DNA of 64,000 nt from Bacteroidota bacterium (GCA_039795225.1 JBDKEN010000001.1:21610-85609), one strand, 5' to 3'. Shown: positions 1,214 to 48,159, counted from the stretch's first letter. Translations and numbers: made by a program. Notes: generated from the sequence alone by a model not told the origin.

Positions 1214-1248
1214 TGGGTACAGGGTACAAGGTACTGGGTACTGGGTAC
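1214..1248 (+). repeat. Heptamer array A1, 5 units (strand = strand on which units read NNNKKAC)
   Basis: TGGGTAC AGGGTAC AAGGTAC TGGGTAC TGGGTAC. GTAC recurs at 1217, 1224, 1231, 1238 and 1245. Starts 12 nt after the hsdR stop. Confidence 0.9.
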
Positions 1249-1303
1249 ACACATTACGACACCCACACAAGACGTTCGCATCCCATCCCCATACTTCAGC
1301 CCT

Positions 1304-1327
1304 GGGCGGGAAGGGGGCGGGGCAGGG
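1304..1327 (+). other. G-quadruplex-type motif GGGCGGGAAGGGGGCGGGGCAGGG
   Basis: Five G3+ runs separated by 1-2 nt loops in the hsdR/DUF2130 intergenic region. Confidence 0.4.
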
Positions 1328-1394
1328 ATGTTTGCCAGCAGGGGCAGGGAAGCCTCAAGCTGAGCAGTATGGGAGGACATTAACCGTTAGCATG

Positions 1395-1408
1395 GAGGAA
1401 GCTTCCTC
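1395..1408. promoter_or_regulatory. Perfect 14-bp palindrome GAGGAAGCTTCCTC upstream of the DUF2130 gene
   Basis: Read directly. Centred 78 nt upstream of the ATG at 1480. Confidence 0.3.
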
Positions 1409-1479
1409 AGACCAGCCCCTTGCGACAACGTTCATCAACCGGTACCCGTATCTTCGAATTCCTGAAGAAAGACACCGCT

Positions 1480-2820
1480 ATGCACGATATCATTTGTCCC
1501 CATTGTCATACAGCGTTTAAGATCGATGAGTCTGGTTACGCCGACATCCTCAAGCAGGTGCGTGATACCGACTTTGAAAAGCAGATTGCCGAGCGCTTGG
1601 CCATTGCCGAAAAGGAGAAAGAAAGTGCTGTCAATCTTACGAAGGCGCAATCCGAGATTGCCCTCAAGAGCAGTCTTGCTGAAAAGGAAGCGCAGATCTC
1701 GGCACTGAAGTCAAAGGTTGATAGCATCGAAATGGAGCGTCAACTTGCAGTGACCATGGCTACGCGAGATCTTGAATCTGAGCGTGACAAGCTGGCCAGT
1801 GAAATTGACCTGTTGAAGAAGCAGATGCAAAGTGCTGTTGATCTGGCACAGGCAACCTTCAAGAATGAGCTGCAGCAAACAGCGAGTGCCAAGGAGAGTC
1901 AGATCCAGTCGTTAAAGAATGATATTGAACGACTCACACTTGCGCAGGAGCTTGCCGAAACGTCGCTGCGCGAGCGCTATGAAGCTCAGCTCAAGGATCG
2001 TGATGCGGCAATCGAACGGCTGCGAGACATGAAGGCCAAGCTCTCCACCAAGATGGTCGGTGAAACCCTCGAACAACACTGCGAGATTGAATTTAATCGC
2101 ATTCGCGCCACTGCTTTCCCCCGGGCGTACTTCGAAAAGGACACCGATGCCCGCACAGGCAGTAAAGGCGATTACATCTTTCGCGATTACGATGAGTCCG
2201 GCACCGAAATCGTCTCCATCATGTTCGAGATGAAGAATGAGGCGGACCTCACGGCGACCAAGAAGAAGAACGAGGACTTCCTCAAAGAACTCGACAAGGA
2301 TCGAGCAGAGAAGAGTTGTGAGTACGCTGTGCTCGTGTCACTGCTCGAGCCAGAGAATGAACTCTACAACACCGGTATCGTCGACATGTTCTACCGCTAC
2401 CCGAAAATGTACGTTGTGCGTCCACAGTTCTTCATCCCGATCATTACGTTGCTTCGGAATGCCGCCATGAACTCGCTCAAATACAAGTCGGAACTTTCTC
2501 TTGTGAAGGCCCAGAACATCGACATCACCAACTTCGAAGAGGACCTCGAGAGCTTCAAGGACGCCTTCAAGCGGAACTACGACCTTGCCTCGAAGAAGTT
2601 CAAGGATGCGATCGACGAAATCGATAAGTCCATCAATCACTTGCAAAAGACCAAGGAAGCCCTGCTCGGTACCGATCGTAATCTCCGACTGGCAAATGAT
2701 AAGGCCCAGGATGTGACTATCAAAAAGCTCACGCGCGGCAACCCAACAATGGCCGCGAAGTTTGCCGAGGTCAAGAATGTCCCGAAGAATGATGCGTCAT
2801 CACCCGAGCCCCACGACTAA
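1480..2820 (+). CDS. DUF2130-like protein: N-terminal CxxC zinc ribbon, long coiled coil, C-terminal PD-(D/E)xK-like region
   Basis: ATG at 1480 ([26 protein letters not shown]) is preferred over the TTG at 1420. The middle is E/K/Q/L-rich coiled coil. GDYIFRD...SIMFEMKNE resembles a D...ExK core. Family assignment is from memory. Confidence 0.6.
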
Positions 2821-2846
2821 AACGCTCTCATCCATCCTCCTAATTT

Positions 2847-2937
2847 GTTCTTCGTAATTCGTACTTCGTAATTGGTACTTCGGAATTGGTCCTTCGTAAT
2901 TCGTACTTCGTAATTCGTACTTCGTAATTCGTCCCAG
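2847..2937 (-). repeat. Heptamer array A2, 13 units, 14-bp super-period
   Basis: The plus strand reads GTTCTTC GTAATTC GTACTTC GTAATTG GTACTTC GGAATTG GTCCTTC (GTAATTC GTACTTC)x2 GTAATTC GTCCCAG. Ends 8 nt from the stop of the minus-strand gene 2946..5216. Confidence 0.95.
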
Positions 2938-2945
2938 CGGCCTTC

Positions 2946-5216
2946 TCACTTGATATGATAGATCCTTATCGCTGAACTTGCGTCGTATGGTGAAACACCT
3001 TGTAGGTCCTCGTCGATTATGGCAGCGAGCTTCGAGCCATCGCCGCTAAAGCTAAATGCTTCCGGGTAACTCCTTGCTGTTCCGACTGGGAGGGGACGTA
3101 GAAGTCGCTGTGATCGAAGATCAATGAGAGCTGCGGGAACACCCTTGTTATGTGACCAAGTAACATACTGCGCATCATTGGCTGAGAACGCCATCACAGT
3201 ATCTCCTGTAGTGCGTGAGATCTCGGCACCGGTTGTCATATCCACTAACCATGTCGTGAAATACGATATGGAGACTAGCCCCTGAATCGCCACAATCTTA
3301 CCTGACTGTGACAGCATTTTAGCTCTGGGGTAATAGCGAGGGTCTGCCAATGTATCCGGACGCCAGGTGAAACTTCGAACTGTACCGCCAGTTGTGATGT
3401 CGATAGTATAGAGTGTCACGGGATTAAATGTCTCAAAAACAGCGAGCGTGTTACCCTGCATCCCCATAAAGCCAGCTATTTTACCGTCAAATTGATTTAA
3501 AGGTATTGTGCGGCGTAAGGTGCCAGATGCAACGTCATATTCATCCATGCGGTCCCGTTCCGTGACGTATACCGTTGAGCCGTCCGAGGTTGCGTGGTGC
3601 CTACCAGGAGCTGATATTGTCGAAACAACCTCGCCTGTGCCTGCATTATAGATCGTAGTCTTGGCACCTGTGGACACAGCAATTCGCGAATCGGCAGCTA
3701 CAAAGCGAATGGAAGAGAAGCGCTCCTGAGTCCATTGTCTGTCTGTTCTCCAGAGCTGCGTACCAGTTGACGCATCAAAGACAAAGACCTCTTGCCACCC
3801 CGTGAATAACGCGACGCGCGAGCCATCGGAGTTCAGCGCAATATTCTGGGCCCAACTACCCAAGGGTAGTTTGAACTCTGTAAATGCTGTTCCAATTCCG
3901 CCGCAGGCCTTGAGATTTCCTGCATTGTACAGAGTTCCGCCAGTGATCGGTGATACCGCGGTCGAGGTAATTGTCCGTCCGTTCGTACTATACCCTTCGA
4001 GGGTGAGTGCGACACCAGCGGGCACCGTAACGCGAATCTTCCCGGTGGTTGATGAGGCGACCTTCACACCCGTTGGCGTGACAACCTGCACGAAGCCACC
4101 GATCGGTGCATCATTGCAATCCACGATCTGTGCCTCCAGAAGCGTCGGACATGGCGAAACGACGATGTTCTTACGAAACGTCTGGTTTTCTGCAATCGGA
4201 CCAACAGTCACCGGTGATGAGGACATGCCCTCGTTACCGCGTGCGCGAACCTGCACATCGAACGCTACGTCTGCCGGTACAAGCCGGCGATACATTCCAT
4301 CTTGATCGGTAATGACACTCACTTGCCCGATATCAACCGTGATGCCTGCAAGAGGGATGTTCTGGCCACATGTTACACGACCTTCGATAAAGGCTCGGCG
4401 AGCTCTCGGAACATCAAGATTCCAGTCCGTAAAGTGCGTTACGGTTCCAACGTACTGTCCGCCCGAAAGCGTAGCCTTCCCTTCCTCAACCCAGATACCC
4501 TGCTTTTCATCGAAATGCCAGAGTGGTATCTCCGACATGGAGGCACCGGCAGCAGGATACGTAAGGTTAGCGACAGCCCCCTTCGCGAGGTTAAGGGGCT
4601 GCCCCTGCGACCCCGTCAGGAGAACACGAAGAACGCCGTACGAAACAAGTTCTGTCGATGAACCATCAGCGCGCAGTGCGGCCATATCTCCTGAAAAGCT
4701 GTCATAGAAGTTTGCCGACTGTGGATCCAGATATCGTGCGGCCACAGAGACCGTTCCGGAGTAGCTGTTACCCTGAGCATCGATGTAGCCGTTCGCCGGC
4801 AGGTCAATGCTAGCAGCTCCAAGTGTTACCAGACCACCACTGGAGGCATTGATCGTCTTGATCTGCTTCGCTTCCTGGAGCGTCAACAGCATAGTTGTGA
4901 CCTTACCAGCCGATGGATAGGCGGCCCTTGCCCCGGTGAAATACCCGCTCTTGCGAACGGTTATCACCGCACGTGTTGATGGAACCGTCACGTTCTGAAG
5001 AACGAACACTCCGTTCCCATTGGTCGTCGTTGAGGTGCCATGACCGCTGACAACTGCCCCTTGAACAGACTTCCCTTCCTCGTCAACAACGCGACCGGTG
5101 ATCGTCGTGCGAACGGTTTCCGCGTAATCACCTTGGGCCGGGTCAGAGACGGAGTTACATCCCGTAAGCGCGGCAAATACAATTACTGTAAGAACAACAC
5201 GGAGCATAAAAGCCAT
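2946..5216 (-). CDS. Large lipoprotein with carboxypeptidase-regulatory-like beta-sandwich domains and a C-terminal propeller-like region
   Basis: ATG at 5216 is preceded by GGAGG with a 5-nt spacer. MAFMLRVVLTVIVFAALTGC is a signal peptide plus lipobox. ITGRVVDEEGKSVQGAVV and IEGRVTCGQNIPLAGITV are CarboxypepD_reg-like segments. No T9SS CTD is present. Confidence 0.6.
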   Translation of the reverse strand: MAFMLRVVLTVIVFAALTGCNSVSDPAQGDYAETVRTTITGRVVDEEGKSVQGAVVSGHGTSTTTNGNGVFVLQNVTVPSTRAVITVRKSGYFTGARAAYPSAGKVTTMLLTLQEAKQIKTINASSGGLVTLGAASIDLPANGYIDAQGNSYSGTVSVAARYLDPQSANFYDSFSGDMAALRADGSSTELVSYGVLRVLLTGSQGQPLNLAKGAVANLTYPAAGASMSEIPLWHFDEKQGIWVEEGKATLSGGQYVGTVTHFTDWNLDVPRARRAFIEGRVTCGQNIPLAGITVDIGQVSVITDQDGMYRRLVPADVAFDVQVRARGNEGMSSSPVTVGPIAENQTFRKNIVVSPCPTLLEAQIVDCNDAPIGGFVQVVTPTGVKVASSTTGKIRVTVPAGVALTLEGYSTNGRTITSTAVSPITGGTLYNAGNLKACGGIGTAFTEFKLPLGSWAQNIALNSDGSRVALFTGWQEVFVFDASTGTQLWRTDRQWTQERFSSIRFVAADSRIAVSTGAKTTIYNAGTGEVVSTISAPGRHHATSDGSTVYVTERDRMDEYDVASGTLRRTIPLNQFDGKIAGFMGMQGNTLAVFETFNPVTLYTIDITTGGTVRSFTWRPDTLADPRYYPRAKMLSQSGKIVAIQGLVSISYFTTWLVDMTTGAEISRTTGDTVMAFSANDAQYVTWSHNKGVPAALIDLRSQRLLRPLPVGTARSYPEAFSFSGDGSKLAAIIDEDLQGVSPYDASSAIRIYHIK

Positions 5217-5221
5217 GGCAA

Positions 5222-5226
5222 CCTCC
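5222..5226 (-). promoter_or_regulatory. Shine-Dalgarno-like GGAGG, 5 nt upstream of the ATG at 5216
   Basis: The minus strand reads GGAGG TTGCC ATG. This contrasts with the box-abutted starts elsewhere in the window. Confidence 0.4.
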
Positions 5227-5530
5227 GATAACATTTGATATAGATAATGAGCTGCTTGTTGATTCTGGTCGCAGCACCAGCCAGACAACCGAGATGCTCC
5301 GAGTCAACCCCACGGTAGACGGAGTCGAGATTTCACAGACGTATGCTATAGCCAACAACGACGATTACATGGTCCACCTTGTCTTACTGACAAGTGTGCT
5401 TGGGCAACTTAGGACTCTTTTCCAAATGCCAAACGATTACTACCGAAAAGTATTACTCAAAATTCTTTCCGGGGTAGCGCCAGACGTCCGGCGTGTGCAG
5501 GATTCCGGATAATGCGGGGACAACCACCTC

Positions 5531-5579
5531 GTCATTCGTACTTCGTCATTCGTACTTCGTAATTGGTACTTCGTACCCT
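5531..5579 (-). repeat. Heptamer array A3, 7 units
   Basis: GTCATTC GTACTTC GTCATTC GTACTTC GTAATTG GTACTTC GTACCCT. Ends 28 nt before the kynA ATG. Confidence 0.95.
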
Positions 5580-5595
5580 ATACCGCTCCTCTCCG

Positions 5596-5603
5596 TAATT
5601 TCG
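5596..5603 (+). promoter_or_regulatory. -10/-7-like box TAATTTCG, 4 nt before the kynA ATG (leaderless-type geometry)
   Basis: Read directly: TAATTTCG GCGC ATG. Confidence 0.35.
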
Positions 5604-5607
5604 GCGC

Positions 5608-6681
5608 ATGCTCTATTACTCTGAATATCTCGCCCTTGATGCCGTTCTCAACGCTCAACATCTGGAGAGTGCCAAGCATGGTGCGCCTGCGCATGAAGAG
5701 ATGTTGTTTATCATCACGCACCAGACATTTGAACTGTGGTTTAAGCAGGTGCTCTTCGAGGTCGACTCGGTAATCCAGTTGTTAGACCGGGAGTATGTGC
5801 CGGAGGCGGATGTTGCGGTGTGCCTTTCGCGGATTCAACGCGTTAATCGAATCATGGAGCACCTGGCCTCGCAGTTTACGTTGATCGAAACCATGACGCC
5901 GGGCGAGTTCATGGAGTTCCGTGCATTCTTGAATCCTGCCAGCGGGTTTCAGTCAGTGCAATGGCGTGTACTGGAGCGCACCCTGGGATTGCCCGAGACA
6001 AAGCGCGTTCTGCGGCACTACACCGAGCCATTCACACCGGAGCAACTCAAGCAGCTCGATGATGCAAGCAATCGGACAACGCTCTTTGCAGCCGTGCAGC
6101 GGTGGCTTGAGCAGATGCCATTCATGGAGCATGGCACCTATGCATTCTGGGATGCCTACAAGCAATCGGTAACCGCGATGCTCGACAACGACCGACGCGA
6201 AGTACGACGTCTGTCTGAAGCTGAGCACACCGATCCAACGCGCGCGCTCGAACAGATTGACGCCAATGAAAAGGGCTTCCTTGGACTCTTTGATGCAGAT
6301 GCCTATGCCGAGCTGCAGACGCAGGGAATTCGTCGACTCTCGCAGCGGGCAACACTGGCGACACTGTTCATTTCGACATATCGGGATCGTCCCTTGCTGC
6401 AGATACCCTATCGATTTGTGGATGCAATCATCGAACTCGACCGTCTTGTTTCGCTCTGGCGCTACCGGCATACCATGATGGTGAGTCGAATGATCGGCAT
6501 GCGCGTCGGGACAGGGGGCTCAAGTGGTCACGACTATTTGATGCAGACAACGGTGCGCCAGCGAGTCTTCGATGATCTGACGTCGCTTTCGTCCTATCTC
6601 GTTTCGCCGCAGCACACACCTGTGCTCCCAGCGGAGATCGAGTCGCGTCTGCAGTTTGTTAACGAAGCGTCCAAGGGCTAG
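5608..6681 (+). CDS. kynA: Tryptophan 2,3-dioxygenase family protein
   Basis: YSEYLALDAVLNAQ, HEEMLFIITHQTFELWFKQ, SGFQSVQWR and WRYRHTMMVSRMIGMRVGTGGSSGHDYL match conserved TDO blocks. Confidence 0.75.
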   Translation: MLYYSEYLALDAVLNAQHLESAKHGAPAHEEMLFIITHQTFELWFKQVLFEVDSVIQLLDREYVPEADVAVCLSRIQRVNRIMEHLASQFTLIETMTPGEFMEFRAFLNPASGFQSVQWRVLERTLGLPETKRVLRHYTEPFTPEQLKQLDDASNRTTLFAAVQRWLEQMPFMEHGTYAFWDAYKQSVTAMLDNDRREVRRLSEAEHTDPTRALEQIDANEKGFLGLFDADAYAELQTQGIRRLSQRATLATLFISTYRDRPLLQIPYRFVDAIIELDRLVSLWRYRHTMMVSRMIGMRVGTGGSSGHDYLMQTTVRQRVFDDLTSLSSYLVSPQHTPVLPAEIESRLQFVNEASKG

Positions 6682-6691
6682 AGTCGCGCTC

Positions 6692-6715
6692 GTTCCATGA
6701 GCATGCTCATGGAAC
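6692..6715. promoter_or_regulatory. Perfect 24-bp palindrome GTTCCATGAGCATGCTCATGGAAC spanning the comF start codon
   Basis: Each half is the exact reverse complement of the other. Contains ATGs at 6697, 6703 and 6709, all in the comF frame. Confidence 0.4.
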
Positions 6716-7431
6716 CAATGAAGACGCTTCTCCGATCGGTCATTCGCGTCATTAATGACGTCGTCTTTCCACGCCACTGCCTGCTCTCAGGTGTCCACCT
6801 GCACGAGCCACCTGTGCTCGTGCCCGGGATTTCCGATACAGCGCTTGCGGCGGAAACCGTTGCCCCATACGGAGCGGCCCTCGAGGTTCTGATTCAACGT
6901 CACTTCGAGCCAGACGATTTCATGCTTTCGCGTGTTTCCTCCTGCTGGACATTGGACCGAAGCTCACGAATTGATGCGGCTATCTATGCGATCAAGTACG
7001 GCGGGCGCACATCCCTGGCAACGCACCTCGGCGCGCTCATGGCAGGTCATATTGATATGGCCGACCTCGATGCTTCGGCAATCATCGCGGCCGTGCCAAT
7101 CCATCGGGCACGACAGCGCGAACGAGGGTATAATCAAGCGTCGTTCCTTGCCGCTGGCCTAGCCGGTGCGCTCAATCGGGCGTTACTCGAGGAGGGTGTG
7201 ATCATTCGCCGGCGCTACACACCAACCCAAACGTCACTTGACCAGCAACACCGCTATCGCAATGTGCAGGATGCCTTCGTTGTGCGCGACCCTTCGATGG
7301 TCAAGGGGCGCACCATCGTCCTTGTCGACGATGTCCTAACCACGGGGGCGACCATCAACGCCTGCGCAACGGCGCTTGTCGAGGCCGGAGCACGACGCGT
7401 GGATGCCATCACTGTCTGTGTTGCCGTGTGA
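6697..7431 (+). CDS. comF: ComF-family phosphoribosyltransferase-domain protein
   Basis: RERGYNQASFLA plus the PRTase motif IVLVDDVLTTGATINA near the C-terminus, the typical ComF/GntX layout. Confidence 0.75.
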   Translation: MSMLMEPMKTLLRSVIRVINDVVFPRHCLLSGVHLHEPPVLVPGISDTALAAETVAPYGAALEVLIQRHFEPDDFMLSRVSSCWTLDRSSRIDAAIYAIKYGGRTSLATHLGALMAGHIDMADLDASAIIAAVPIHRARQRERGYNQASFLAAGLAGALNRALLEEGVIIRRRYTPTQTSLDQQHRYRNVQDAFVVRDPSMVKGRTIVLVDDVLTTGATINACATALVEAGARRVDAITVCVAV

Positions 7432-7460
7432 GAGCTTCATTCCAGAAGTCCGTCTCGCAG

Positions 7461-7472: not shown

Positions 7473-8879
7473 ATGATCTACTCCTTCGTTCGACACAGAT
7501 CCGCCGTTACAGCGCTGCTGGTGCTGTTCGCTTCTCTTGGTGCGATATCACAGACCTTTCCGTATGAAGTGTTCGATGACGACCTGCCCCCTGCCTCGGT
7601 TTACAAAGAGCGTCGCGAGCGACTCTTGCAGCAGATGGCTCCGCGGACGATGTGCGTTGTTCTATCGGCCGACGTCCGCAATCGTCAGAACGACGTTGAC
7701 TTCGAGTACCGTCAGAGCTCAGACATGCTCTACCTCTGTGGATCGCCTACACCAGCGTCCACCTTGGTGCTGATCAAGGACGGGGTCGTGATCAATGGAC
7801 GTCGACTTCGAGAAATCTTGTTCATTCCCGAGCGGAAGCCCGATCGCGAAGTATGGCAAGGTGTCGCCATGGGACCACTTGAGGCGATGCAGCATCTTGG
7901 CGTTGACACTGCGATTGCGACGAAGGACATGCGCGCACTCCTGGATAGCATGATCGTGCGTACCGACACGCTTCTCGTCTCAACCCTTCCAACACGCGCG
8001 CTCAACGTGCCCCTTGCCGGGAAGAATCTCTACAGTGAAGGAGAGATGAAGCGCTGGCTCAAGGAGCTCAACCCATCATGCATCTTGAAGACGCCAATCT
8101 CCTACCTCAGGGCCATGCGCGAGGTCAAGGACAGTGCCGAGCTTCGCTTGATGCGCATGGCAATCGACATCAGCATCGAAGGTCACTTGGCAACCATGAA
8201 GGGGGCTCGCCCCGGAATGAAGGAATACGAGCTTGAAGCACTCATGGAGTACGGCTTCAAGCGTCGTGGTGCACAAGATGTCGGCTATCCTTCGATCGTT
8301 GGCTCGAACTATAACGCCTGCATTCTCCACTACACGGCGAACCGTCGAACGACGAGTATCAACGACCTCGTGCTGGCAGATTGTGGTGCCGAGTATCATG
8401 GGTACACGGCGGACATCACGCGAACCTTTCCCCTGACCGGGTCGTTCACCAAGGAACAACGCCTGATCTACGACATCGTCCTTGAAGCGCAGGATTCAGG
8501 CATCGCCGCATCACGTCTCGGTAGCCCCTTTCGTGCACCGCACCAGGCCGCGCTCGACGTCATCCAGCGTCGCCTGATGGAACTGGGCATCACCGCGGCA
8601 CCGGAACAAGCATCGGACTACTTCATTCACGGGACCTCCCATTATTTAGGACTCGATGTCCACGATCCCGGCACCGGTGGACCACTCAAAGCCAACAGCA
8701 TCATCACCGTCGAGCCAGGCATCTACATCCCCGCCGGCTCACCCTGTGATAAACGGTGGTGGAATATCGGCATCCGCATCGAAGACGACATCCTCATCAC
8801 CCCCACCGGCCCCGTAAACCTCTCAGCAGCATTGCCCCGCAAGGCGGCTGATATTGAAGCGTTGATGAAACGAGAGTAG
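7473..8879 (+). CDS. pepP: Xaa-Pro aminopeptidase (M24B)
   Basis: N-terminal AMP_N-like region. Metal-ligand blocks LADCGAEYHGYTADITRT, HGTSHYLGLDVHD, VEPGIYIP and GIRIEDDILIT. Confidence 0.8.
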   Translation: MIYSFVRHRSAVTALLVLFASLGAISQTFPYEVFDDDLPPASVYKERRERLLQQMAPRTMCVVLSADVRNRQNDVDFEYRQSSDMLYLCGSPTPASTLVLIKDGVVINGRRLREILFIPERKPDREVWQGVAMGPLEAMQHLGVDTAIATKDMRALLDSMIVRTDTLLVSTLPTRALNVPLAGKNLYSEGEMKRWLKELNPSCILKTPISYLRAMREVKDSAELRLMRMAIDISIEGHLATMKGARPGMKEYELEALMEYGFKRRGAQDVGYPSIVGSNYNACILHYTANRRTTSINDLVLADCGAEYHGYTADITRTFPLTGSFTKEQRLIYDIVLEAQDSGIAASRLGSPFRAPHQAALDVIQRRLMELGITAAPEQASDYFIHGTSHYLGLDVHDPGTGGPLKANSIITVEPGIYIPAGSPCDKRWWNIGIRIEDDILITPTGPVNLSAALPRKAADIEALMKRE

Positions 8880-8884
8880 GGGCG

Positions 8885-8954
8885 CAATTACCAATTACCA
8901 ATTACCAATTACCAAGTACCAAGTACCAATTACGAATGACTAATGGCAAAGTAC
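8885..8954 (+). repeat. Heptamer array A4, 10 units
   Basis: CAATTAC x4, CAAGTAC x2, CAATTAC, GAATGAC, TAATGGC, AAAGTAC. Starts 5 nt after the pepP stop. Confidence 0.95.
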
Positions 8955-9022
8955 GTCAACAATGTACGCTGACTGCTTCGTCATAGGTTTGACGAGGTCC
9001 TTGATTGGGGACATTATTCACG

Positions 9023-9141
9023 GTCCTTGGTAATTCGTACTTGGTAATTAGTAATTCGTACTTGGTAATTGGTAATTCGTACTTGTTAACTGGTAATTCG
9101 TACTTAGTAATTGGTAATTGGCAATTCGTACTTGGTAACTT
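9023..9141 (-). repeat. Heptamer array A5, 17 units, 21-bp super-period
   Basis: GTCCTTG then four triplets (GTAATTC GTACTTG GTAATTN-like) over 9030-9113, then GTAATTG GCAATTC GTACTTG GTAACTT. Ends 5 nt before the glmM ATG. Reverse complement of A4 unit types. Confidence 0.95.
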
Positions 9142-9143
9142 GC
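9136..9143 (+). promoter_or_regulatory. -10/-7-like box TAACTTGC, 3 nt before the glmM ATG; it is also the last unit of array A5
   Basis: GTAACTTGC CCC ATG. Confidence 0.3.
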
Positions 9144-9146
9144 CCC

Positions 9147-10490
9147 ATGTTCATCCGATCAATTTCTGGGCTACGAGCCACGCTTGGTGATGACCTGACG
9201 CCGGCGGTTGTTGCGAGATATGCGGAAGCCTTTAGTGCAATCCTCCCCAATGGGCCGATCGTTGTTGGTCGAGACGGGCGTCCGAGTGGACTGTGGATAG
9301 AGCAGGTTCTCATTGGTGCACTCCGTGCATGTGGCCGTACGGTGCGTCATCTTGGTATGATGCCAACGCCAACGGTGCAGCTACTGACGGAGCATTCCGA
9401 TGCTGTGGGTGGTATTTCCATTACTGCATCGCATAACCCGGCACCGTGGAATGGCTTGAAGTTTGTTGACGCTGGCGGCGTTTTTCTTGATGCTGACGGT
9501 AATGCGCAACTCTGGGAGGCGGCCGATGCAGCATCGGCGAACCGTTCATCCGAGCAGCAAGCAGGTATTCTTGAGCAGATTGATGATGCCGCGGCGCGAC
9601 ACGTTGATGTTGTGCTTGCACTTGAGGCAGTGTCCACAGCACCGAGTGCGAACGGTGAGACAGTAGTTGTTGATGCGGTCAACTGCTCTGGGTCATTCAT
9701 CGTGCCGCTCTTGCTCGAGCGGATGGGGTATCGGGTTGTTCGCTTGTTTGCCGATGGATCGGGGATCTTCCCACATACGCCTGAGCCCCTTGCAGAAAAT
9801 TTAACGGAGCTCGGTCGCGCCGTTGTTGCGCACGGCGCCATCATGGGCGTTGCCGTTGATCCGGATGCGGACCGGCTTGTGCTCTTTGATCGGCACGGGA
9901 CGCCCATTGGCGAAGAACGGACGGTTGCATTGGCTGCACGAGCTGTGCTCTTGCACGGACACCTGGGCTCGGTCGTAGTCAACTTCTCGACATCTCGAAT
10001 GGTTGACGATGTGGCGGCGGAATTCGGTCAACAGGTTGAACGTGCACCGGTGGGTGAAATCAATGTTGTTCGTCGGATGCAGGAGCTCTCGGCCGTGATT
10101 GGCGGCGAAGGTAGCGGTGGTGTCATCTACCCGGCATGCCATGCCGGACGTGACAGTCTGGTTGGACTTGCTTTAATCAGTGCAATGCTGCGTCGAAGCG
10201 GCACAACTCTGGATGACGTCTGTGCTGCGATCCCCTCCTACACGATGATCAAGACGAAGTTTGATCTCGCCTCGCGGGAGCAGATGACCAGCATAACGCA
10301 GCGGATCGTTGCACTGCACGGAGAACATATCGCCTCGACGGCTGATGGCATCTATCTGCGCTGGCCGCAGAGCTGGCTGCATGTGCGTGCTTCGAACACC
10401 GAGCCGATCATGCGCGTGATTGCCGAGGCACCAACGCCCGAAGAGGCCACATCGCTTGTGGAATCGATCACGGCGCTGATCCATGGCTAG
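9147..10490 (+). CDS. glmM: Phosphoglucosamine mutase / phosphohexomutase
   Basis: ATG at 9147 (MFIRSISGLRATLG, a Bacteroidetes-type GlmM N-terminus). Phosphoserine loop ITASHNPAPWNGLKF, metal loop GVAVDPDADR, sugar loop GGEGSGG. The upstream part of the listed ORF is heptamer-array read-through. Confidence 0.7.
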   Translation: MFIRSISGLRATLGDDLTPAVVARYAEAFSAILPNGPIVVGRDGRPSGLWIEQVLIGALRACGRTVRHLGMMPTPTVQLLTEHSDAVGGISITASHNPAPWNGLKFVDAGGVFLDADGNAQLWEAADAASANRSSEQQAGILEQIDDAAARHVDVVLALEAVSTAPSANGETVVVDAVNCSGSFIVPLLLERMGYRVVRLFADGSGIFPHTPEPLAENLTELGRAVVAHGAIMGVAVDPDADRLVLFDRHGTPIGEERTVALAARAVLLHGHLGSVVVNFSTSRMVDDVAAEFGQQVERAPVGEINVVRRMQELSAVIGGEGSGGVIYPACHAGRDSLVGLALISAMLRRSGTTLDDVCAAIPSYTMIKTKFDLASREQMTSITQRIVALHGEHIASTADGIYLRWPQSWLHVRASNTEPIMRVIAEAPTPEEATSLVESITALIHG

Positions 10491-18934: not shown

Positions 18935-19770
18935 TCCTGACCGCCTATCGCGTCGAAATGTCCAAGGTCTTCTCAAAGTGGCGGACCTTTATTGGCTTTC
19001 TTGCCCTGGCCGTGCTAATCCCAATCGTTGTAGCCGGGATGAGCATGCAGGGAGAGCAGTTCTTCAAGTTTGCCACCTCCGGACTCAAAGACACGTTCGA
19101 GTTCACGGGACATCTACTCAACGGCTATGCCGTTGCCTACATCATCTTCTCCTCGCTCTACCTGCACGTGCCATTCCTGATCACCCTTGTGGCTGGGGAG
19201 GTGCTTGCCGGTGAGGCTACTGCCGGCACCTATCGTTTGGTTCTGACGCGCCCCCTTTCGAGGGCCACAATGGTCAACGCCAAGTACTTTGCCACGCTCA
19301 CCTACACCTTTCTGCTCGTCGTCTGCATGGCCGTGCTCTCACTCGGCCTTGGCATAGGATTCCTCGGCACCGGCGAGGTCTTCATCATCCGTCAGCAGAT
19401 CACCGTTCTGCAGGCCGACGACCTTCTGTGGCGCTTTGCCTACGCCTACGCGTGGGCGTTTCTGGCGATGGCCACTGTATCGAGCGTTGCCTTTTTGTGT
19501 TCGTCACTGGTTGAGAATGCTATCGGACCGATTATGACGACGATGTCGATCATCATCGTGATGACGATCATTTCGGCCATCGACGTGCCCCTGTTCGACT
19601 ATGTACGCCCACTGTTCTTTACCAATCACATGAACAGCTGGAAGTTCTTCTTTGATGACCCGGTACGTTGGGATCGCATTGGCCCATCGTTCTTGGCGCT
19701 GATGCTCCACATCATCGGCTGCTTTGTTGCAGCGCATATCATCATCCGTCGAAAGGACATCCTGACGTGA
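18931..19770 (+). CDS. ABC-2 family permease
   Basis: ATGA start/stop overlap with the upstream ATPase. Multiple long hydrophobic segments across 279 aa. Confidence 0.65.
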   Translation: MILTAYRVEMSKVFSKWRTFIGFLALAVLIPIVVAGMSMQGEQFFKFATSGLKDTFEFTGHLLNGYAVAYIIFSSLYLHVPFLITLVAGEVLAGEATAGTYRLVLTRPLSRATMVNAKYFATLTYTFLLVVCMAVLSLGLGIGFLGTGEVFIIRQQITVLQADDLLWRFAYAYAWAFLAMATVSSVAFLCSSLVENAIGPIMTTMSIIIVMTIISAIDVPLFDYVRPLFFTNHMNSWKFFFDDPVRWDRIGPSFLALMLHIIGCFVAAHIIIRRKDILT

Positions 19771-20438
19771 TCCGCCCCCTGATAGCTCTCGTTCTCGTCT
19801 TCACAGCCCTCCTCGAACCGGTCCTTGCTGCCACAGATGCCAAAGCCCTGCTGATGTCCATCCGCAAACGCATGGAGTCGAGTGGAAAGTATACAGCCGA
19901 GCTGCGTCTCAAGGTCGACATCCCGTTCATGAAGGCCCCCGAGGCAAAGGCGTCGCTAACATTCACGCCTCCAAACTCGACGAAGATCACCTCCAAGGGC
20001 TTTGCAATGATTCCAAAGCAAAGCACGGAACTCAGCGCTCTGTCTTTGCTTTCGGGCGAGTTCGCTGCCATCGATATGGGCACTGAATCATATAAGGGGC
20101 TCACCCTGCGCAAGATCAAGATCATCCCGGCCGATGAAACGGGTAACATCGTGGTCGCTACGCTGTTCGTTGACGAAGCAGCCCTGCTCACACGCAAGGT
20201 CACAGCAACGGCGAAGTCCGGCGGTACAGTGGCTGCCGAACTGGTCTATGATAACGCCAAAGCCGCTGCGTACTGCCTTCCGTCGTACATGAAGATCACC
20301 ATGGAAGTGCCCAACTTCGAGATCCCACGCACCATCACCGGCGATTTTAACGAGTCGGCCCAACCCAAAAAACCGGCAGATCCCAATGGCAAAACAAAGG
20401 CCAGTGTGGAGATCTGGTATGAGAAGTACCGGTTCTAG
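19767..20438 (+). CDS. Secreted LolA-like / lipoprotein-carrier-like hypothetical protein
   Basis: GTG at 19767 overlaps the permease stop (GTGA). VIRPLIALVLVFTALLEPVLAA is a signal peptide. The beta-rich body is only vaguely LolA-like. The listed start at 19668 would overlap the permease by about 100 nt. Confidence 0.45.
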   Translation: MIRPLIALVLVFTALLEPVLAATDAKALLMSIRKRMESSGKYTAELRLKVDIPFMKAPEAKASLTFTPPNSTKITSKGFAMIPKQSTELSALSLLSGEFAAIDMGTESYKGLTLRKIKIIPADETGNIVVATLFVDEAALLTRKVTATAKSGGTVAAELVYDNAKAAAYCLPSYMKITMEVPNFEIPRTITGDFNESAQPKKPADPNGKTKASVEIWYEKYRF

Positions 20439-20439
20439 G

Positions 20440-20495
20440 TTTGGGGTTTGGGGTTTGGGGTTTGGGGTTTGGGGTTTGGGGTGTGAGGTTTGGGG
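20440..20495 (+). repeat. Heptamer array A6: (TTTGGGG)6 TGTGAGG TTTGGGG, a G-quadruplex-type tract
   Basis: Read directly. Starts 1 nt after the TAG of 19767..20438 and ends 19 nt from the xth stop (convergent gene ends). The last sense codons upstream include GAAGTAC. Confidence 0.95.
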
Positions 20496-20514
20496 TGTAT
20501 AGCCAGCCGTACAA

Positions 20515-43200: not shown

Positions 43201-43330
43201 TCGGTGGATCGACATTGGGAAACTGGCGGATACCAAGAAATGAAGCTCCCACAAGCCCCATCACGACGAGTAGGATGCTAATGACGACTGCGGTAACAGG
43301 ACGCCGGATTGAAAACACGCTGATGTTCAT
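40268..43330 (-). CDS. RND efflux transporter permease (AcrB/HAE1-like)
   Basis: 1,020 aa. N-terminus FSIRRPVTAVVISILLVVMG, 12-TM AcrB layout, two large periplasmic loops. Confidence 0.9.
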   Translation of the reverse strand: MNISVFSIRRPVTAVVISILLVVMGLVGASFLGIRQFPNVDPPNISVTTTYTGANADVVESQITEPLEESINGIDGIRSLTSTSADGRSTITVEFELERDLEQAANDVRDRVERAKRQLPADVDPPVVAKSESNSSNVVVMTVQGRDRSLGELSAYAANVLKERLQTITGVGSITIWGERKYAMRIIMDPKKLVSYGLTPTDVRAVLARENVELPSGRLEGSTMELSLRTLGRLATAEEFLNLILRDEQGAVIRLSDVARVYLGAENERTVLKRDGVPMVALAISPQPGANQIEIADEFYRRYQQLLASTPKGIELKVAFDNTRFIRGAIREVEETLVIAFLLVVLIIFLFLRTWRATIIPVVAIPVSLVASFFFLWMAGFSINLLTLLGIVLATGLVVDDAIVMMENIYKRIEEGEDPSSAGENGSSEITFAIISTTVTLAMVFLPVIFLQGITGRLFREFGLVVASSVIVSAVVSLTLTPMMSTAILRRSSIEGWLVRVTEPFFVWLTTAYSRSVDAVVRRPLRAGIAMLVSIVALLGIGGMLKSELAPLEDRSVITMNLTAPEGTTYDRMNVIIDSLQQRVQAAVPEKKLLITVTSPFFLSGGSNAGFARLILVDPEERRRSQMAIAAMLTKILRDATEVRTLVIQEQTISTGQRAGLPVQVVIMAPNIESLREALPNVLEQAQQNPVFSVVDVNLKFTKPEVDIEVDRAKARALGVNLADIASVIQSGFSGQRYGYIVRDGKQYQVIGELERSARATPEDVLDISVRTASGAMVPLVDLVTLQERSVPPQLYRYNRSVSATISAGLAPGATIADGIKAMEEVASKTLDDRFSTALTGASRDFAESSSSLLFAFVLALALVYLILAAQFESWIDPLTIMLTVPLALSGAVISLWISGDTLNIFSQIGCIVLIGLVTKNGILIVEFANQRFEQGADRIQAALDAASLRFRPILMTSLATILGSLPIALSLGAASESRVGMGVVVVGGMAISTLLTLYIIPSLYVVLSRLKSPTAVQHG

Positions 43331-44406
43331 CGTAGGGTCGCCTTGACAGGTTTGCCAGCCTTGACGAACAGAATTCCCGAGGTGATGATGGTATCACCCG
43401 GCGCAACACCCGACAACACCTGCACGTGCGTCATCGTTCGGGCACCGGTCGACACGAGAACTGCTTCAGCACGGCCACCACGAACACGGTAGACGGTGGC
43501 ACCATTCATGTCCTGGACGATGGATTCAGCTGGCAGGAGAAGAGCATCGGTGATTGTTGATCGACGCAGCAAAACATCGGCAAACATCCCGGAGGAGAGA
43601 CCAGCTGCATTCGAGATCCGTGCACGCACTCGTTGCGTGCGAGTGCGCTCATCAAGCACCGGTTCAACAGCCGAGACCGTTGCGACGCGAGAGCTCGTAT
43701 CGGCACTGCGCAGACGCAGACGAAGTGGACTGCCAACACCAACTGTACCGATGTAGCGCTCGGGTACAGCCACATCAATGTTCAGTGCGCCGGCCGATGT
43801 GAGTGTCGTGATCGGTGTGGACGGGCTAACGATGGCGCCGACGCTGATTTGTCGCAATCCGATGATGCCACTGAAAGGGGCTCGCACTTCGGTCTTCGCA
43901 ATCTGAGCATCCAACTCAGCGATTTCGGCCGTCCGCATCGCCACCTGCGCAACTGCGGCCTCAAGTTCTTCCTGCGATACACCATCAACGGCCTTCATTG
44001 CGCGAAGACGCTCGGCACGTTTGGCATCGAGCTGACGCTGCTGCTCGAGTTTCGACCGACGCGCAACGAGATCATCATCAACGAGTTTGACCAGTAGCTG
44101 GCCTGCTCGAACTTGGACCCCTTCGCGGAAGCTGATCGACTTGACACGCCCGGTTATCTCCGTGCGGACATCGATCGATTCATCGGCGACAACTTGACCG
44201 GTCAGGGAAACCTCATCGGTAAACTCCTGCGGCGTGACCACCATCGCCTCAACAGCTGGGGGAAGTTTTCCACCGGGTGGACCTCCGGCCGGCGATGCGC
44301 CCGGGCCCCCGGAGGACGTCAAATCAGCTCCAGAGCGCCATCGAAGCACGCCTGCGACAGCAAGAACGACCAGTCCGACGACAAGGGCAATTTTGCGAGT
44401 ATTCAT
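43327..44406 (-). CDS. RND efflux periplasmic adaptor (membrane fusion protein)
   Basis: ATG at 44406 (MNTRKIALVVGLVVLAVAG). Lipoyl/coiled-coil/beta-barrel order. 4-nt overlap with the RND gene. Confidence 0.85.
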   Translation of the reverse strand: MNTRKIALVVGLVVLAVAGVLRWRSGADLTSSGGPGASPAGGPPGGKLPPAVEAMVVTPQEFTDEVSLTGQVVADESIDVRTEITGRVKSISFREGVQVRAGQLLVKLVDDDLVARRSKLEQQRQLDAKRAERLRAMKAVDGVSQEELEAAVAQVAMRTAEIAELDAQIAKTEVRAPFSGIIGLRQISVGAIVSPSTPITTLTSAGALNIDVAVPERYIGTVGVGSPLRLRLRSADTSSRVATVSAVEPVLDERTRTQRVRARISNAAGLSSGMFADVLLRRSTITDALLLPAESIVQDMNGATVYRVRGGRAEAVLVSTGARTMTHVQVLSGVAPGDTIITSGILFVKAGKPVKATLR

Positions 44407-44410
44407 TCTG

Positions 44411-44418
44411 CAAACTTC
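44411..44418 (-). promoter_or_regulatory. -7-like box GAAGTTTG, 4 nt before the ATG of the RND adaptor gene
   Basis: The minus strand reads GAAGTTTG CAGA ATG. Confidence 0.25.
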
Positions 44419-44507
44419 GGCAAATTTTCCCATGCTATTTTTGCGCCTGCTTCGTCTTGGTCTGCGCCCAAGGTTGATTCTTTCACCACGCTTCGAGGAT
44501 TAGCACG

Positions 44508-44843
44508 ATGCGAACATGTCTCCTGGTTATTGCCACCCTGCTCCTGCCACTTACGTTGCTTGCAGCGGAACAAAAAGTCACCCTGAAAGTTGCCGGCAAC
44601 TGCGGCTCCTGCAAAAAGCGAATCGTCAAGGCCGCTGAGTCGATCGACGGTGTGAGCGACGCTGCATGGGATAAGAAGACGAAGACCTTCACCGCTGTCT
44701 ATGACGACGCAAAAGCTACACCTGAAGCAATCAAGAAGGCTATCGCTGCCGCTGGATACGACGCAGAAGACGTCAAGGGCAACGATGAGGCCTACAGCAA
44801 GCTTCCAGACTGCTGCCGATATCGTGACGGATCACACGATTGA
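44508..44843 (+). CDS. Secreted heavy-metal-associated (HMA) domain protein
   Basis: Signal peptide, then VTLKVAGNCGSCKKRIVKAAESIDGV (CxxC ferredoxin-like HMA fold) and a C-terminal LPDCCRY cysteine pair. Divergent from the RND operon. Confidence 0.65.
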   Translation: MRTCLLVIATLLLPLTLLAAEQKVTLKVAGNCGSCKKRIVKAAESIDGVSDAAWDKKTKTFTAVYDDAKATPEAIKKAIAAAGYDAEDVKGNDEAYSKLPDCCRYRDGSHD

Positions 44844-44855
44844 AGACTGGGTATC

Positions 44856-44946
44856 CAACGACCAATTACAAATGACCAATGACAAAGTACAATTGGCCAA
44901 TGACGAATGACCAATGACGAATGACCAGTGACGAATGACCAATGAC
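44856..44946 (+). repeat. Heptamer array A7, 13 units
   Basis: CAACGAC CAATTAC AAATGAC CAATGAC AAAGTAC AATTGGC CAATGAC GAATGAC CAATGAC GAATGAC CAGTGAC GAATGAC CAATGAC. Starts 12 nt after the HMA gene stop. Confidence 0.95.
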
Positions 44947-44977
44947 GAGTGGAGTCTCGCATCGGCGGGAACGAAGA

Positions 44978-45012
44978 ACACCTCACACCTCACACCCCAA
45001 ACCTGAAACCTG
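44978..45012 (-). repeat. Heptamer array A7b, 5 units, C-rich on the plus strand (complement resembles A6)
   Basis: ACACCTC ACACCTC ACACCCC AAACCTG AAACCTG. The complement reads CAGGTTT CAGGTTT GGGGTGT GAGGTGT GAGGTGT. Ends 4 nt before the gcvP ATG. Confidence 0.85.
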
Positions 45013-45016
45013 TTCC

Positions 45017-47875
45017 ATGCATCGCGACATTTTTGAACATCGCCACCACGGACTTTCACAATCTGACATTCAGGCCATGCTGGCTGCTGTTGATGCATCG
45101 AGCATCGACCAGCTTGTTGAGCAGACCGTACCGTCGCAGATCCGGCTTGAGAAGCCCCTTGACCTGCCGTTGCCGCTGACGGAGATCGAGATGCTTGCCG
45201 AATTGAAGTCGATCGCAGCCACCAACTCGGTTGCTCGGTCCTACATCGGCATGGGGTATTATGACACGGTCACACCGCCTGTGATTCTCCGAAACCTCAT
45301 CGAGAATCCAGGATGGTACACGCAGTACACGCCCTACCAGGCAGAGATTGCGCAGGGCCGTTTGGAAAGCCTGTTGAACTTCCAGACGCTGGTGACAGAC
45401 CTGACCAAGATGGATATTGCCGGGGCTTCGCTACTCGACGAAGGCACGGCTGCAGCTGAAGCCATGCATATGACATTCGCTGCGCGCGGCGCGGCGGTGA
45501 AGTCGGCAAACACAATGTTCGTCGACGCAAATGTCTTCCCGCAAACCCTGGAGGTGATTCGCACTCGTGCAACACCATTGGGAATCAACGTTGTTGTCGG
45601 CGATTGGAAGAGCGTCGAGTTTGATGGTACAATTTTCGGTGCCTATGTCCAGTACCCAGCTGGCGACGGTTCTGTTGAAGACTACACGGCGTTCTGTGAG
45701 CGAGCTCATGCAGGGGGCGCGTTGGTAACAGTCGGTACGGACCTCATGGCCCTGACGCATCTCACACCACCGGGTGAGTTTGGTGCAGACGTCGCTGTCG
45801 GCACAGCGCAACGATTGGGCGTGCCATTGGGATATGGTGGACCGCATGCAGCCTTCTTGGCAACGCGTGAGGCATACAAGCGTATCATTCCGGGTCGCAT
45901 TATTGGCGTCAGCGTCGATGCTCAAGGGAATCTGGCTCTGCGCATGGCCCTGCAAACGCGTGAGCAACACATCCGTCGTGACAAGGCGACGTCGAACATT
46001 TGTACGGCGCAGGCGTTGCTGGCAAATGTCTCGGCGATGTATGCCGTGTATCACGGTCCTGATGGACTGCGTGGCATCGCCCATCGTATTCACACGCTCA
46101 CCTCAGCGCTGGCCTCGGGGCTCACATCCCTCGGGTATAGCACCTGTAACATTTCATGGTTTGACACGCTGTGCGTCTGTGCTGATCCAGCTGCTGTGCG
46201 CGCAGTCTTTGAGCCACGGCTTATCAATCTGCGCTACCGCACAGATTGTGCGTGCGTTGGTGTTTCGCTTGACGAGACGACAACGGTTCCCGATGTACAA
46301 GACATCCTTGATGCCTTTGCAGCCGTCAAGGGAGCTTCGGCACCTCATGTTGCCGATCTTCTGCACACGGCGACGAGCGGCCTCCCGGCCTCACTCGTGC
46401 GGACCTCGAGCTATCTCACACATCCGGTATTTAACAGTTATCACACCGAACACGAGATGCTACGCTACATGAAGCGTCTCGAGAACAAAGACCTGTCTCT
46501 CACGCATTCGATGATCTCCCTGGGCTCGTGCACCATGAAGCTCAACGCAACGGCGGAGATGATCCCAATCACCTGGCCTGAGTTCAATCGTATTCATCCA
46601 TTTGCGCCCCTCTCACAGACGCAGGGGTATCAGCGCATTTTCTCTGAGCTGAGCACATGGCTGAATGAAATCACAGGATTTGATGCATGCTCCCTGCAGC
46701 CGAATGCAGGTGCACAGGGCGAGTATGCTGGACTATTGGCAATCCGCGGATTCCATCATGCACGGGGCGAGCAGCACCGCAATGTGGTGCTTATCCCCTC
46801 GTCTGCCCATGGCACCAATCCAGCGTCGGCCGTCATGGCCGGCATGAAGGTTGTTGTCGTCAAGAGCGATGCTCATGGTCATGTCGACGTCGATGATCTG
46901 CGCGCACAGGCAGAAGCAAACTCGGCGAATCTTGCAGCGCTGATGGTAACATACCCGTCAACGCACGGCGTATTTGAGGAGGCCATCAAGGACATCTGCG
47001 CCATTGTGCATCAGCACGGTGGACGTGTTTACATGGACGGAGCAAACATGAATGCCCAGGTGGGCTTGACGTCACCACGCGCCATCGGCGCTGATGTATG
47101 CCACCTCAACCTCCACAAGACGTTCTGTATTCCACACGGAGGGGGCGGTCCAGGAATGGGTCCGATCTGCTGCACGGCAGAGCTCGCCCCGTACCTGCCA
47201 TCACATCCCGTCATCAACCCGATCGATGTCGAGCATGTCGGGCCGGTATCCGCTGCTCCTTGGGGCTCGGCATCCATTCTGCTCATCTCATGGGCATACA
47301 TCCGGATGATGGGCGGTGAAGGTCTGACGAATGCAACCAAGCGTGCTATTCTGAATGCGAACTACATCAAGAGTCGCATCGAACAGCATTATCCGATCCT
47401 CTATACCGGCACAAACGGACGCTGCGCCCACGAGATGATCGTGGACCTGCGCGAGTTCAAGCAGCGCGGTGGCATCGAAGCAGAAGATGTTGCAAAGCGC
47501 ATGATGGACTACGGATACCACGCGCCGACACTCAGCTTCCCTGTCCCAGGCACGATCATGATCGAGCCCACAGAGAGCGAGAGCAAGGCCGAACTGGACC
47601 GGTTCATCGAAATGCTCCTTTCCATTCGTACCGAAATTGAGAGTGTGTGCAGTGGCGCAATTGATGCCAAGGACAACCCGCTCAAGAATGCCCCGCACAC
47701 CATGTTCGTTGTCACTGCCGATACGTGGGAACACACGTACTCACGTCAGACTGCCGCATTCCCACTTCCATGGGTGCGTGATCGGAAGTTCTGGCCATCC
47801 ATCGGCCGGGTCGACAACGCTCATGGCGATCGCGTGCTCATTTGCACGTGTCCGTCGATCGAAGAATACGCGTGA
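45017..47875 (+). CDS. gcvP: Glycine dehydrogenase (decarboxylating), single-chain P protein
   Basis: ATG at 45017 ([12 protein letters not shown]) gives 952 aa. PLP-lysine block [18 protein letters not shown]. The upstream part of the listed ORF is repeat-array read-through. Confidence 0.95.
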
Positions 47876-47878
47876 GTT

Positions 47879-47955
47879 TGGGTACTGGGTACGAAGTACA
47901 AATGACGAAGTACGAAGTACCAATGACGAAGTACGAAGTACCAATGACGAAGTAC
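47879..47955 (+). repeat. Heptamer array A8, 11 units, 21-bp super-period
   Basis: TGGGTAC TGGGTAC GAAGTAC AAATGAC (GAAGTAC GAAGTAC CAATGAC)x2 GAAGTAC. Starts 3 nt after the gcvP stop. Confidence 0.95.
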
Positions 47956-48068
47956 TTTGCTTGGGTTTGGTGTCCTGCCTTCGCGGGCATGGTTATGGCG
48001 TTCCAGGTTCAACCGTAATAGCGTAGTTCCCGAACTCTGTGGATCGCTACATACTTGCTCATGCAAGC

Positions 48069-48159
48069 GTACCTGGTCATAAGTAATTCGTCCTTGGTAA
48101 TTCGTCCTTGGTAATTCGTCCTTGGTAACTCGTCCTTGGTGATCCGTCATCGGTAATTC
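48069..48159 (-). repeat. Heptamer array A9, 13 units, 14-bp super-period
   Basis: GTACCTG GTCATAA (GTAATTC GTCCTTG)x3 GTAACTC GTCCTTG GTGATCC GTCATCG GTAATTC. Ends 16 nt before the hrpB ATG. Confidence 0.95.

Follow-up and report, generated by a model that had tools for sequence, protein, structure and literature searches.

Does the orientation of tandem heptanucleotide arrays relative to the genes that they flank reflect a signal read during transcription, or a property of the spacers in which they lie? This question is raised by a 64,000-nt stretch of DNA from a Bacteroidota bacterium (GCA_039795225.1, JBDKEN010000001.1:21610-85609; the whole stretch is referred to as the window), in which Tandem Repeats Finder and direct reading identified ten arrays of period 7, all within the first 48 kb and none in the last 16 kb (Table 1). 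Bacterial heptamer arrays, which are functionally unexplained, have been on record since 1990, and in many genomes no other long microsatellites are as common. Those in the window comprise 6-16 copies of 7-nt units at the ten sites (Tandem Repeats Finder), and by our own calculation chains of four units are expected by chance at ~0.1 per Mb. The arrays consist of head-to-tail units within the 5-11-nt range of long simple sequence repeats and are longer than chance allows; they are hypermutable heptanucleotide (sometimes octanucleotide) microsatellites, a class called STRR in cyanobacteria and long simple sequence repeats elsewhere. The unit [C/G]AA[G/T][G/T]AC is common to seven of the ten arrays, and this full unit (SAAKKAC, a form of NNNKKAC) was used to set array orientation.

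The initial annotation had proposed that arrays just downstream of a stop codon read (NNNKKAC)n in the direction of that gene (5/5), while those lying immediately upstream of start codons read the reverse complement, (GTMMNNN)n (3/3). The period-7 arrays and the orientations given to them proved real, on the plus strand for A4, A7 and A8 and on the minus strand for A2, A3, A5 and A9, and every orientable array reads away from its nearest gene (7/7 including A2; p = 0.016, two-sided binomial test), these seven stemming from only five spacers. The rule therefore stands for seven arrays and not for eight, as the polarity of A1 is undefined by the same criterion: GTAC is its own reverse complement and fits both NNNKKAC and GTMMNNN. 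A2, which had already been called ambiguous, is indeed marginal, being nearly equidistant between two genes in a 125-nt spacer that it almost fills (~20-26 nt to one gene and 13-15 nt to the other).

The post-stop sense rule and the pre-start antisense rule are algebraically one. In both, the nearest gene lies behind the NNNKKAC strand, which in the 5'->3' sense runs from that gene's edge to the middle of the spacer, whatever the gene strand, and the rule is unchanged when the gene strand is flipped. It can be described either as an mRNA with (GUMMUUS)n at its 5' end and (SAAKKAC)n at its 3' end or as a spacer-centred arrangement (-> <-), and because these two descriptions are equivalent, orientation counts cannot separate an RNA-level from a DNA-level reading. 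Consequently, the claim that the strand rule is tied to transcription direction does not follow, the rule being a geometric one that takes no account of gene strand. The earlier view that the arrays are something other than neutral by-products of slippage was upheld by a polarity that is highly non-random and is kept at orthologous spacers despite changes in unit and period. Two further explanations of the polarity were considered and rejected: replication direction, since array orientations alternate within a few kb, and a function as backup stops, since by inspection stop codons are absent from -> units such as CAATTAC and GAAGTAC and present in <- units such as GTAATTC, which is the opposite of expectation.

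We assign the host, which is uncultured, to the Kapabacteria/Ignavibacteria group because the gcvP homologues closest to its own bear the names Candidatus Kapabacteria or Ignavibacteria. Assembly artefacts can be discounted as the source of the arrays, since JGI, NCBI and Logan assemblies made independently all contain the region. In gcvP-syntenic loci of Kapabacteria relatives (GcvP identities of 94%, 93%, 90%, 85%, 83% and 75%; genes taken from database calls), all 14 further KKAC-type arrays read away from the nearest gene (4/4 in locus L337, 2/2 in L123, 4/4 in L126 and 4/4 in L248), giving 21/21 arrays in ~15 spacers for the window and relatives together. The polarity and the KKAC core are retained within the clade while unit and period drift: the unit after HMA is CAATGAC, CGATGAC, TGATGAC or GAGTGAC depending on the species, and the array after gcvP is made of GAAGTAC (period 7), GGAATTAC or GGAGTTAC (period 8), GGGTTTT (period 7), or a 13-mer. 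The corresponding spacers of L127 and L249 have no arrays. The gcvP-hrpB spacers of the window and strain L001 are identical apart from A8 and A9, which in L001 are longer by 6 units (42 nt) and 4 units (28 nt), respectively, and L248 is set apart from L335 and L336 by 1-4 octamer units. As strains differ by whole units alone, slippage is indicated, and these comparisons show that the arrays lengthen and shorten by whole units or super-units, pointing to slipped-strand mispairing. The window and its relatives form a clean natural experiment, in which unit and period drift, position, KKAC core and polarity are kept, and strains differ in copy number only.

Outside the Kapabacteria, genes were predicted with a purpose-built codon-score caller, which agreed with database calls in 19/19 cases on L001 and missed hrpB in L123, thereby adding noise to the counts outside the Kapabacteria loci. 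A species-representative genome collection searched with (SAAKKAC)x4 yielded matches in Cyanobacteria, Verrucomicrobia, Planctomycetes, Bacteroidota, Acidobacteria and Chloroflexi, with dozens of Nostocales and Oscillatoriales genomes retrieved; metagenomes were scanned with a GAAGTAC-containing pattern, and a viral-contig collection was scanned completely. Across the genome-collection loci (L003-L122) and the viral-collection loci (L251-L334), the SAAKKAC heptamer family is also found in Myxococcota and in 84 viral-collection contigs, including giant-virus bins. On metagenome contigs, 72/97 arrays read away from the nearest gene (p = 2e-6), as do 46/67 single arrays considered alone (p = 0.003), and 12/15 metagenome arrays in convergent spacers follow the polarity; on viral-collection contigs the count is 84/126 (p = 2e-4). 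Pooled, the genome collection looks negative (62/155 away), but its lineages have opposite signs. Non-cyanobacterial arrays read away from the nearest gene in 45/72 cases, whereas only 17/83 cyanobacterial arrays do so and 66/83 (80%) read towards it, with start-proximal arrays in sense in 35/37 cases and arrays in convergent spacers directed towards the nearest gene in 12/12. This reversal of motif polarity argues against a fixed motif-specific 3'-end signal. Arrays are also depleted from divergent spacers, which account for 2/83 array-bearing spacers compared to 38/302 in the background; the window itself has one array-bearing divergent spacer, that of A3, and L248 has another. In co-directional spacers stop-proximal arrays outnumber start-proximal ones by ~2:1.

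In most data sets, the polarity can be expressed as a G/C skew. Read 5'->3', the strand that has more G than C points away from its nearest gene for 55/74 cyanobacterial arrays, 70/93 metagenome arrays and 40/67 arrays of other genomes. When all period-7 arrays were identified independently of motif, 297/445 followed this skew rule (p = 1e-12), as did 135/217 bystander arrays that had played no part in the choice of loci (p = 4e-4). A G-richer strand running from the gene edge into the spacer is found in Kapabacteria, cyanobacteria, soil metagenome taxa and viral-collection contigs, in unrelated units and with periods 7 and 8. Read in mRNA sense, repeat-bearing flanks have C>G before starts and G>C after stops in every set, while repeat-free flanks show little skew except for Kapabacteria leaders (C>G, 23:7); Kapabacteria 3' flanks are C>G without repeats and G>C with them. 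Purine, A/T and keto skews were rejected as descriptors of the polarity, their sign being inconsistent across data sets. The possible mechanisms are narrowed by a polarity that is geometric, extends across phyla as a G/C skew and is flipped in motif sign in cyanobacteria: a fixed sequence signal is unlikely, and a property of strand composition or pairing is more likely.

As the polarity runs inward from both gene edges, two arrays in one spacer are convergent and able to pair as a long imperfect hairpin. The window contains two such inverted pairs, A4/A5 and A8/A9. Convergent ('><') pairs outnumber '<>' pairs by 23:0 in metagenomes, 8:2 in other genomes, 11:3 on viral contigs and 2:0 in the window, and cyanobacterial pairs are '<>' in nine cases and '><' in none, which again places the G-richer arm first. 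The two arms of a pair share more units (0.236) than random pairs do (0.167; p = 0.001). In the spacer at 8876-9150, A4 and A5 fold as one long imperfect hairpin (-98.5 kcal/mol, z = -6.8 relative to shuffles), with pairing that extends into non-array bases beside both genes (GGGGCG ... UUGCCCC), and the spacer at 47873-48178 folds at -102.6 kcal/mol (z = -4.2). In a search for degenerate partner arms beside single arrays, GTAC-containing units score in both orientations. Start-proximal arrays give a sense RNA with less structure than the complementary strand has (99:50), and stop-proximal arrays one with more structure (127:82); this asymmetry is consistent with that of G·U wobble pairing and gives weak, general support to an RNA-level reading. 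No intrinsic terminators (a GC-rich stem-loop followed by a U-tract) were found in 8700-9300, and a scan of 44700-48300 returned one weak minus-strand site inside A7, fewer than expected from shuffles. Rfam 15 covariance models gave no matches at the gathering score in the whole window, and no notable promoters were found in the array spacers.

Other inverted arrangements were seen in the relatives. At L126 12915-13015, two inverted copies of a GC-rich palindrome with a REP-like look (GGGGCGAGAC...GTCTCGCC) lie between (GGGTTTT)n and (ACCTGTA)n. At L248 20028-20192, and also in L335 and L336, a convergent spacer holds an inverted pair of period 13, (TTCTTCAAGCGCC)n / (CTTGCAGAAGGCG)n, with the C-rich arm first.

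Table 1. Period-7 arrays of the window and the genes at its start (positions counted from the first nucleotide of the window)
Feature	Unit	Position	Strand of array	Context
hsdR C-terminus (type I restriction enzyme R subunit), then DUF2130 gene		1-2820		A1 lies between the two genes; Pfam
A1	(NGGGTAC)x6	1207..1249	undefined	5 nt 3' of hsdR stop; plus strand G-rich
A2	(GTAATTC/GTACTTC)n on plus strand, SAAKKAC on minus strand	2841..2932	-	convergent spacer between DUF2130 (+) and gene 2946..5288 (-)
A3	(GTCATTC/GTACTTC)n on plus strand	5529..5576	-	31 nt 5' of tryptophan 2,3-dioxygenase start; divergent spacer
A4	(CAATTAC/CAAGTAC)n	8885..8944	+	5 nt past pepP stop; left arm of convergent pair
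A5	(GTAATTC/GTACTTG/GTAATTG)n on plus strand	9027..9138	-	ends ~9 nt before phosphoglucosamine-mutase-like start; right arm, pair with A4
A6	(GGGGTTT)x8	20438..20496	+	overlaps stop of open reading frame 19767..20438; convergent spacer
A7	(CAATGAC/GAATGAC)n	44855..44948	+	12 nt past HMA gene stop
C-rich array	(ACACCTC/AAACCTG)n	44978..45004	-	12 nt upstream of gcvP start; G-rich on minus strand
A8	(TGGGTAC)2 then (GAAGTAC GAAGTAC CAATGAC)n	47879..47955	+	starts 3 nt past gcvP stop; left arm
A9	(GTAATTC GTCCTTG)n on plus strand	48083..48159	-	ends 16 nt before hrpB start; right arm, pair with A8

Pfam and database gene calls bore out the earlier naming of the flanking genes as the hsdR C-terminus, DUF2130, tryptophan 2,3-dioxygenase, the M24 aminopeptidase pepP, a phosphoglucosamine mutase-like gene, HMA, gcvP and hrpB. 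The arrays are set tightly against gene ends, adjoin housekeeping genes (gcvP, pepP, the phosphoglucosamine-mutase-like gene and hrpB) and lie outside open reading frames (ORFs), with A1 past the hsdR stop. Simple sequence repeats of the phase-variation (contingency) type are located inside an ORF or between the promoter elements of surface or restriction-modification genes, whose expression switches as units are gained or lost. The array at 44978..45004, missing from the initial annotation, is the C-rich complement of an A6-like unit, and relatives carry orthologous (ACCCAAA)n-type arrays at its site. A6 itself belongs to the G-rich family, and the gene nearest to it lies behind its G-rich strand. 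This array is similar to a telomere repeat and might fold as a G-quadruplex, and a (GGGTTTT)n array follows gcvP in L126. The gcvP-hrpB spacer (window 47876-48175) is an insertion hot spot, with orthologues at L123 12860-14006, L126 12860-15717, L127 12860-13775 and L337 7145-8295. Depending on the relative, the inserts encode a zeta-toxin/AAA_33 protein, a HigB toxin, DUF1569 and DUF3800 proteins, or an NYN nuclease, and repeat arrays flank all of them. Away from the arrays, a 375-nt tandem repeat (2.3 copies, 74% identity; window 61791-62635) lies inside a giant minus-strand ORF (59680..63942) that probably encodes a repetitive surface protein.

The explanation that we favour, at a probability of roughly 45%, is that slippage generates the arrays, that selection on properties of the single-stranded transcript maintains their orientation, and that paired arrays act as REP/BIME-like stem-loops. 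A transcript entering a gene, whether upstream in sense or downstream in antisense, would carry the pyrimidine-rich, G-poor and weakly structured version of the repeat, and a transcript leaving a gene would carry the G-richer version; the polarity would be maintained by selection on single-stranded nucleic acid. A read-through transcript would meet the G-rich arm and then its complement, and could fold as an intergenic stem-loop delimiting the neighbouring transcription units, with single arrays representing either half-elements or survivors in the only tolerated orientation. Neither a dedicated terminator signal nor a known RNA family would be involved. Several observations weigh against this explanation. 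By G/C skew only 4/7 window arrays conform, and A4 and A5 (CAATTAC type) keep the motif polarity and break the G/C polarity, and the period-13 pair of L248 is an exception to the G-first order seen with periods 7 and 8. The structural asymmetry between sense and antisense RNAs is of modest size and is not seen in the window. Because arrays mostly occur singly, a hairpin can explain no more than part of the picture, and some pairs in relatives are non-complementary, such as (GAAATTAC)n with (GTCACTC)n in L126. In addition, A5 and A9 end 9-16 nt before starts, and a hairpin formed in read-through RNA would cover the start region if no promoters were located in or beside the right arm, and each RNA-level step is one that we infer.

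The main rival, which we regard as rather unlikely, is a pure selection filter without function, whereby slippage occurs anywhere that is dispensable, only harmless orientations survive, such as those giving G-poor leaders without structure beside starts, and polarity is a by-product. Such a filter fits the fact that copy number is the sole difference between strains, the lack of arrays in L127 and L249, the C>G bias of repeat-free Kapabacteria leaders and the lower sense structure of start-proximal arrays. However, the polarity is equally strong at stops and in convergent spacers, which have no leaders (12/12 in cyanobacteria and 12/15 in metagenomes), the 3' flanks of Kapabacteria change from C>G to G>C when they bear repeats, and the strict order of convergent pairs, together with long persistence at orthologous spacers, suggests more than tolerance. 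The proposal of directional signals tied to transcription of the adjacent gene, with NNNKKAC as a 3'-end or terminator element and its complement as a leader insulator, gains from a polarity that is real and replicated, from the depletion of arrays in divergent spacers, which lack 3' ends, from the stop-proximal excess, and from the finding that most such repeats are transcribed in Xanthomonas (Rehm et al., PMC4692102). It is nevertheless unlikely: invariance to gene strand removes specific support for coupling to transcription, the array spacers scanned contain neither hairpin-plus-U-tract terminators nor Rfam matches, cyanobacteria show the opposite motif polarity (17/83, with start-proximal arrays in sense), and the change of unit and period between species at one and the same spacer is a poor fit to a sequence-specific signal, even with the KKAC core kept in the clade. 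A related idea, Rho loading by C-rich RNA that reads into genes, is attractive for phyla that contain Rho and was rejected because the rule is strongest in cyanobacteria, which to our knowledge lack Rho.

Readings at the level of DNA fare less well. Where spacers are broken or gapped, repeats might be appended to the 3' ends in a telomere-like manner, or the arrays might serve as polar Chi-like or roadblock barriers that guard the adjacent gene against processes arriving from the spacer. The geometric, gene-strand-independent polarity would accord with this, as would a G-richer strand running 5'->3' to the middle of the spacer from both sides, the insertion hot spot between gcvP and hrpB in relatives, and the telomere-like G-rich repeats of A6 and its orthologues; yet no candidate enzyme was identified, strain differences are simple gains and losses of units inside arrays, A4 and A5 are not G-richer on the predicted strand, and the idea, which we consider very unlikely, is one that we infer throughout. 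Largely refuted, and hardly credible at this point, is the notion that a miniature mobile element of MITE-like or REP/RAYT-like type has the arrays as its terminal inverted repeats. Convergent pairs do span the whole spacer, and their pairing includes non-array bases near the gene ends, but the sequences between the arms are unique, as neither the window nor the loci that were fetched (~3 Mb) hold a second copy of these spacer cores, and the pairs are therefore not MITEs. Moreover, copy number changes separately in the two arms, arrays mostly occur singly, the units are not the same from one spacer or species to another, and neither a target-site duplication nor a transposase is apparent.

More broadly, it is conceivable, though improbable, that a single phylum-spanning mechanism acts on single strands at gene borders and that the arrays are purpose-built polar guards rather than filtered slippage debris. 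Such guards may be platforms for strand-specific proteins, barriers to incoming transcription, Chi-like attenuators of exonucleases, or the outcome of repeats being added from a template where spacers break. Should the arrays mark the limits of transcription units, as in the stem-loop explanation that we favour, they would aid the annotation of operon boundaries in uncultured lineages.

Several known systems share features with these arrays. The REP/BIME elements of enterobacteria are intergenic, lie mostly between co-directional or convergent genes, and have inverted copies that fold in read-through RNA; they are credited with stabilising the mRNA upstream and with binding DNA-level factors. 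REP units are imperfect palindromes of 20-40 nt spread by RAYT transposases, whereas the arms described here are slippage-prone direct arrays of 7-8-nt units in which no link to RAYT was seen. The cyanobacterial STRR sequences, reportedly described by Mazel et al. in 1990, are said to be tandem intergenic heptamers that are highly repeated, with TTGGTCA as the unit of STRR2. The A7 unit, CAATGAC, is what we take to be a rotation of the reverse complement of STRR2, while the other window arrays use related but different units. The host differs as well, being no cyanobacterium as judged from its Kapabacteria/Ignavibacteria gcvP homologues, and so does the polarity, since in cyanobacteria SAAKKAC is directed towards the nearest gene with pairs in the '<>' order and in this lineage it is directed away.

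Oriented TAACTGA heptamers have been described directly upstream of starts in Beggiatoaceae, cyanobacteria and Bacteroidetes, where they show 7-nt-step indels between strains, are patchy across phyla, and were proposed to bind the single-strand RNA-binding proteins S1, Csp and CsrA (MacGregor 2015, PMC4679880); the same work summarises the finding by Mrazek that heptanucleotides are the commonest long simple sequence repeats. The preferred orientation, the 7-nt steps between strains and the patchy occurrence among phyla are common to those repeats and the present arrays. In contrast, TAACTGA repeats have another unit, number mostly 2-6 copies, lie mostly upstream of starts and include almost no inverted sets, while the arrays here are long, flank genes on either side and frequently come in pairs.

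The closest match is provided by the G-rich heptamers GGGAATC of Xanthomonas and GGGGA(C/T)T of Nostoc, which are dispersed in spacers (Rehm et al., 2015, PLoS One, PMC4692102). Of the two ORFs that flank such a repeat, the one on its 5' side is the closer, 'irrespective of the ORFs orientation', the repeats being located on the non-coding strand <50 bp upstream of starts and on the coding strand <50 bp past stops. Each genome has 70-75 inverted pairs in convergent arrangement; the repeats are scarcer than expected between divergent ORFs and vary in length among close relatives while keeping their position; their function is unknown (PMC4692102). Their G-tracts are capable of forming G-quadruplexes, and four units are preferred (PMC4692102). 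Most units in the window are instead [C/G]AA[G/T][G/T]AC and would form no G-quadruplexes: CAATTAC, GAAGTAC and CAATGAC have no G-tracts, only A6 qualifies as G-tract-bearing, and A6 and the array at 44978 alone are similar. The host lineage is also a different one (Kapabacteria), period 8 is possible in relatives, and A4 and A5 keep the motif polarity without the G/C polarity. The polarity and convergent pairs shared with Xanthomonas (PMC4692102), the depletion in divergent spacers and the variation in length at a kept position are all found here. Because Rehm et al. described the same syndrome in G-rich heptamers, the present finding adds a further lineage and another family of units to a phenomenon that is known but unexplained.

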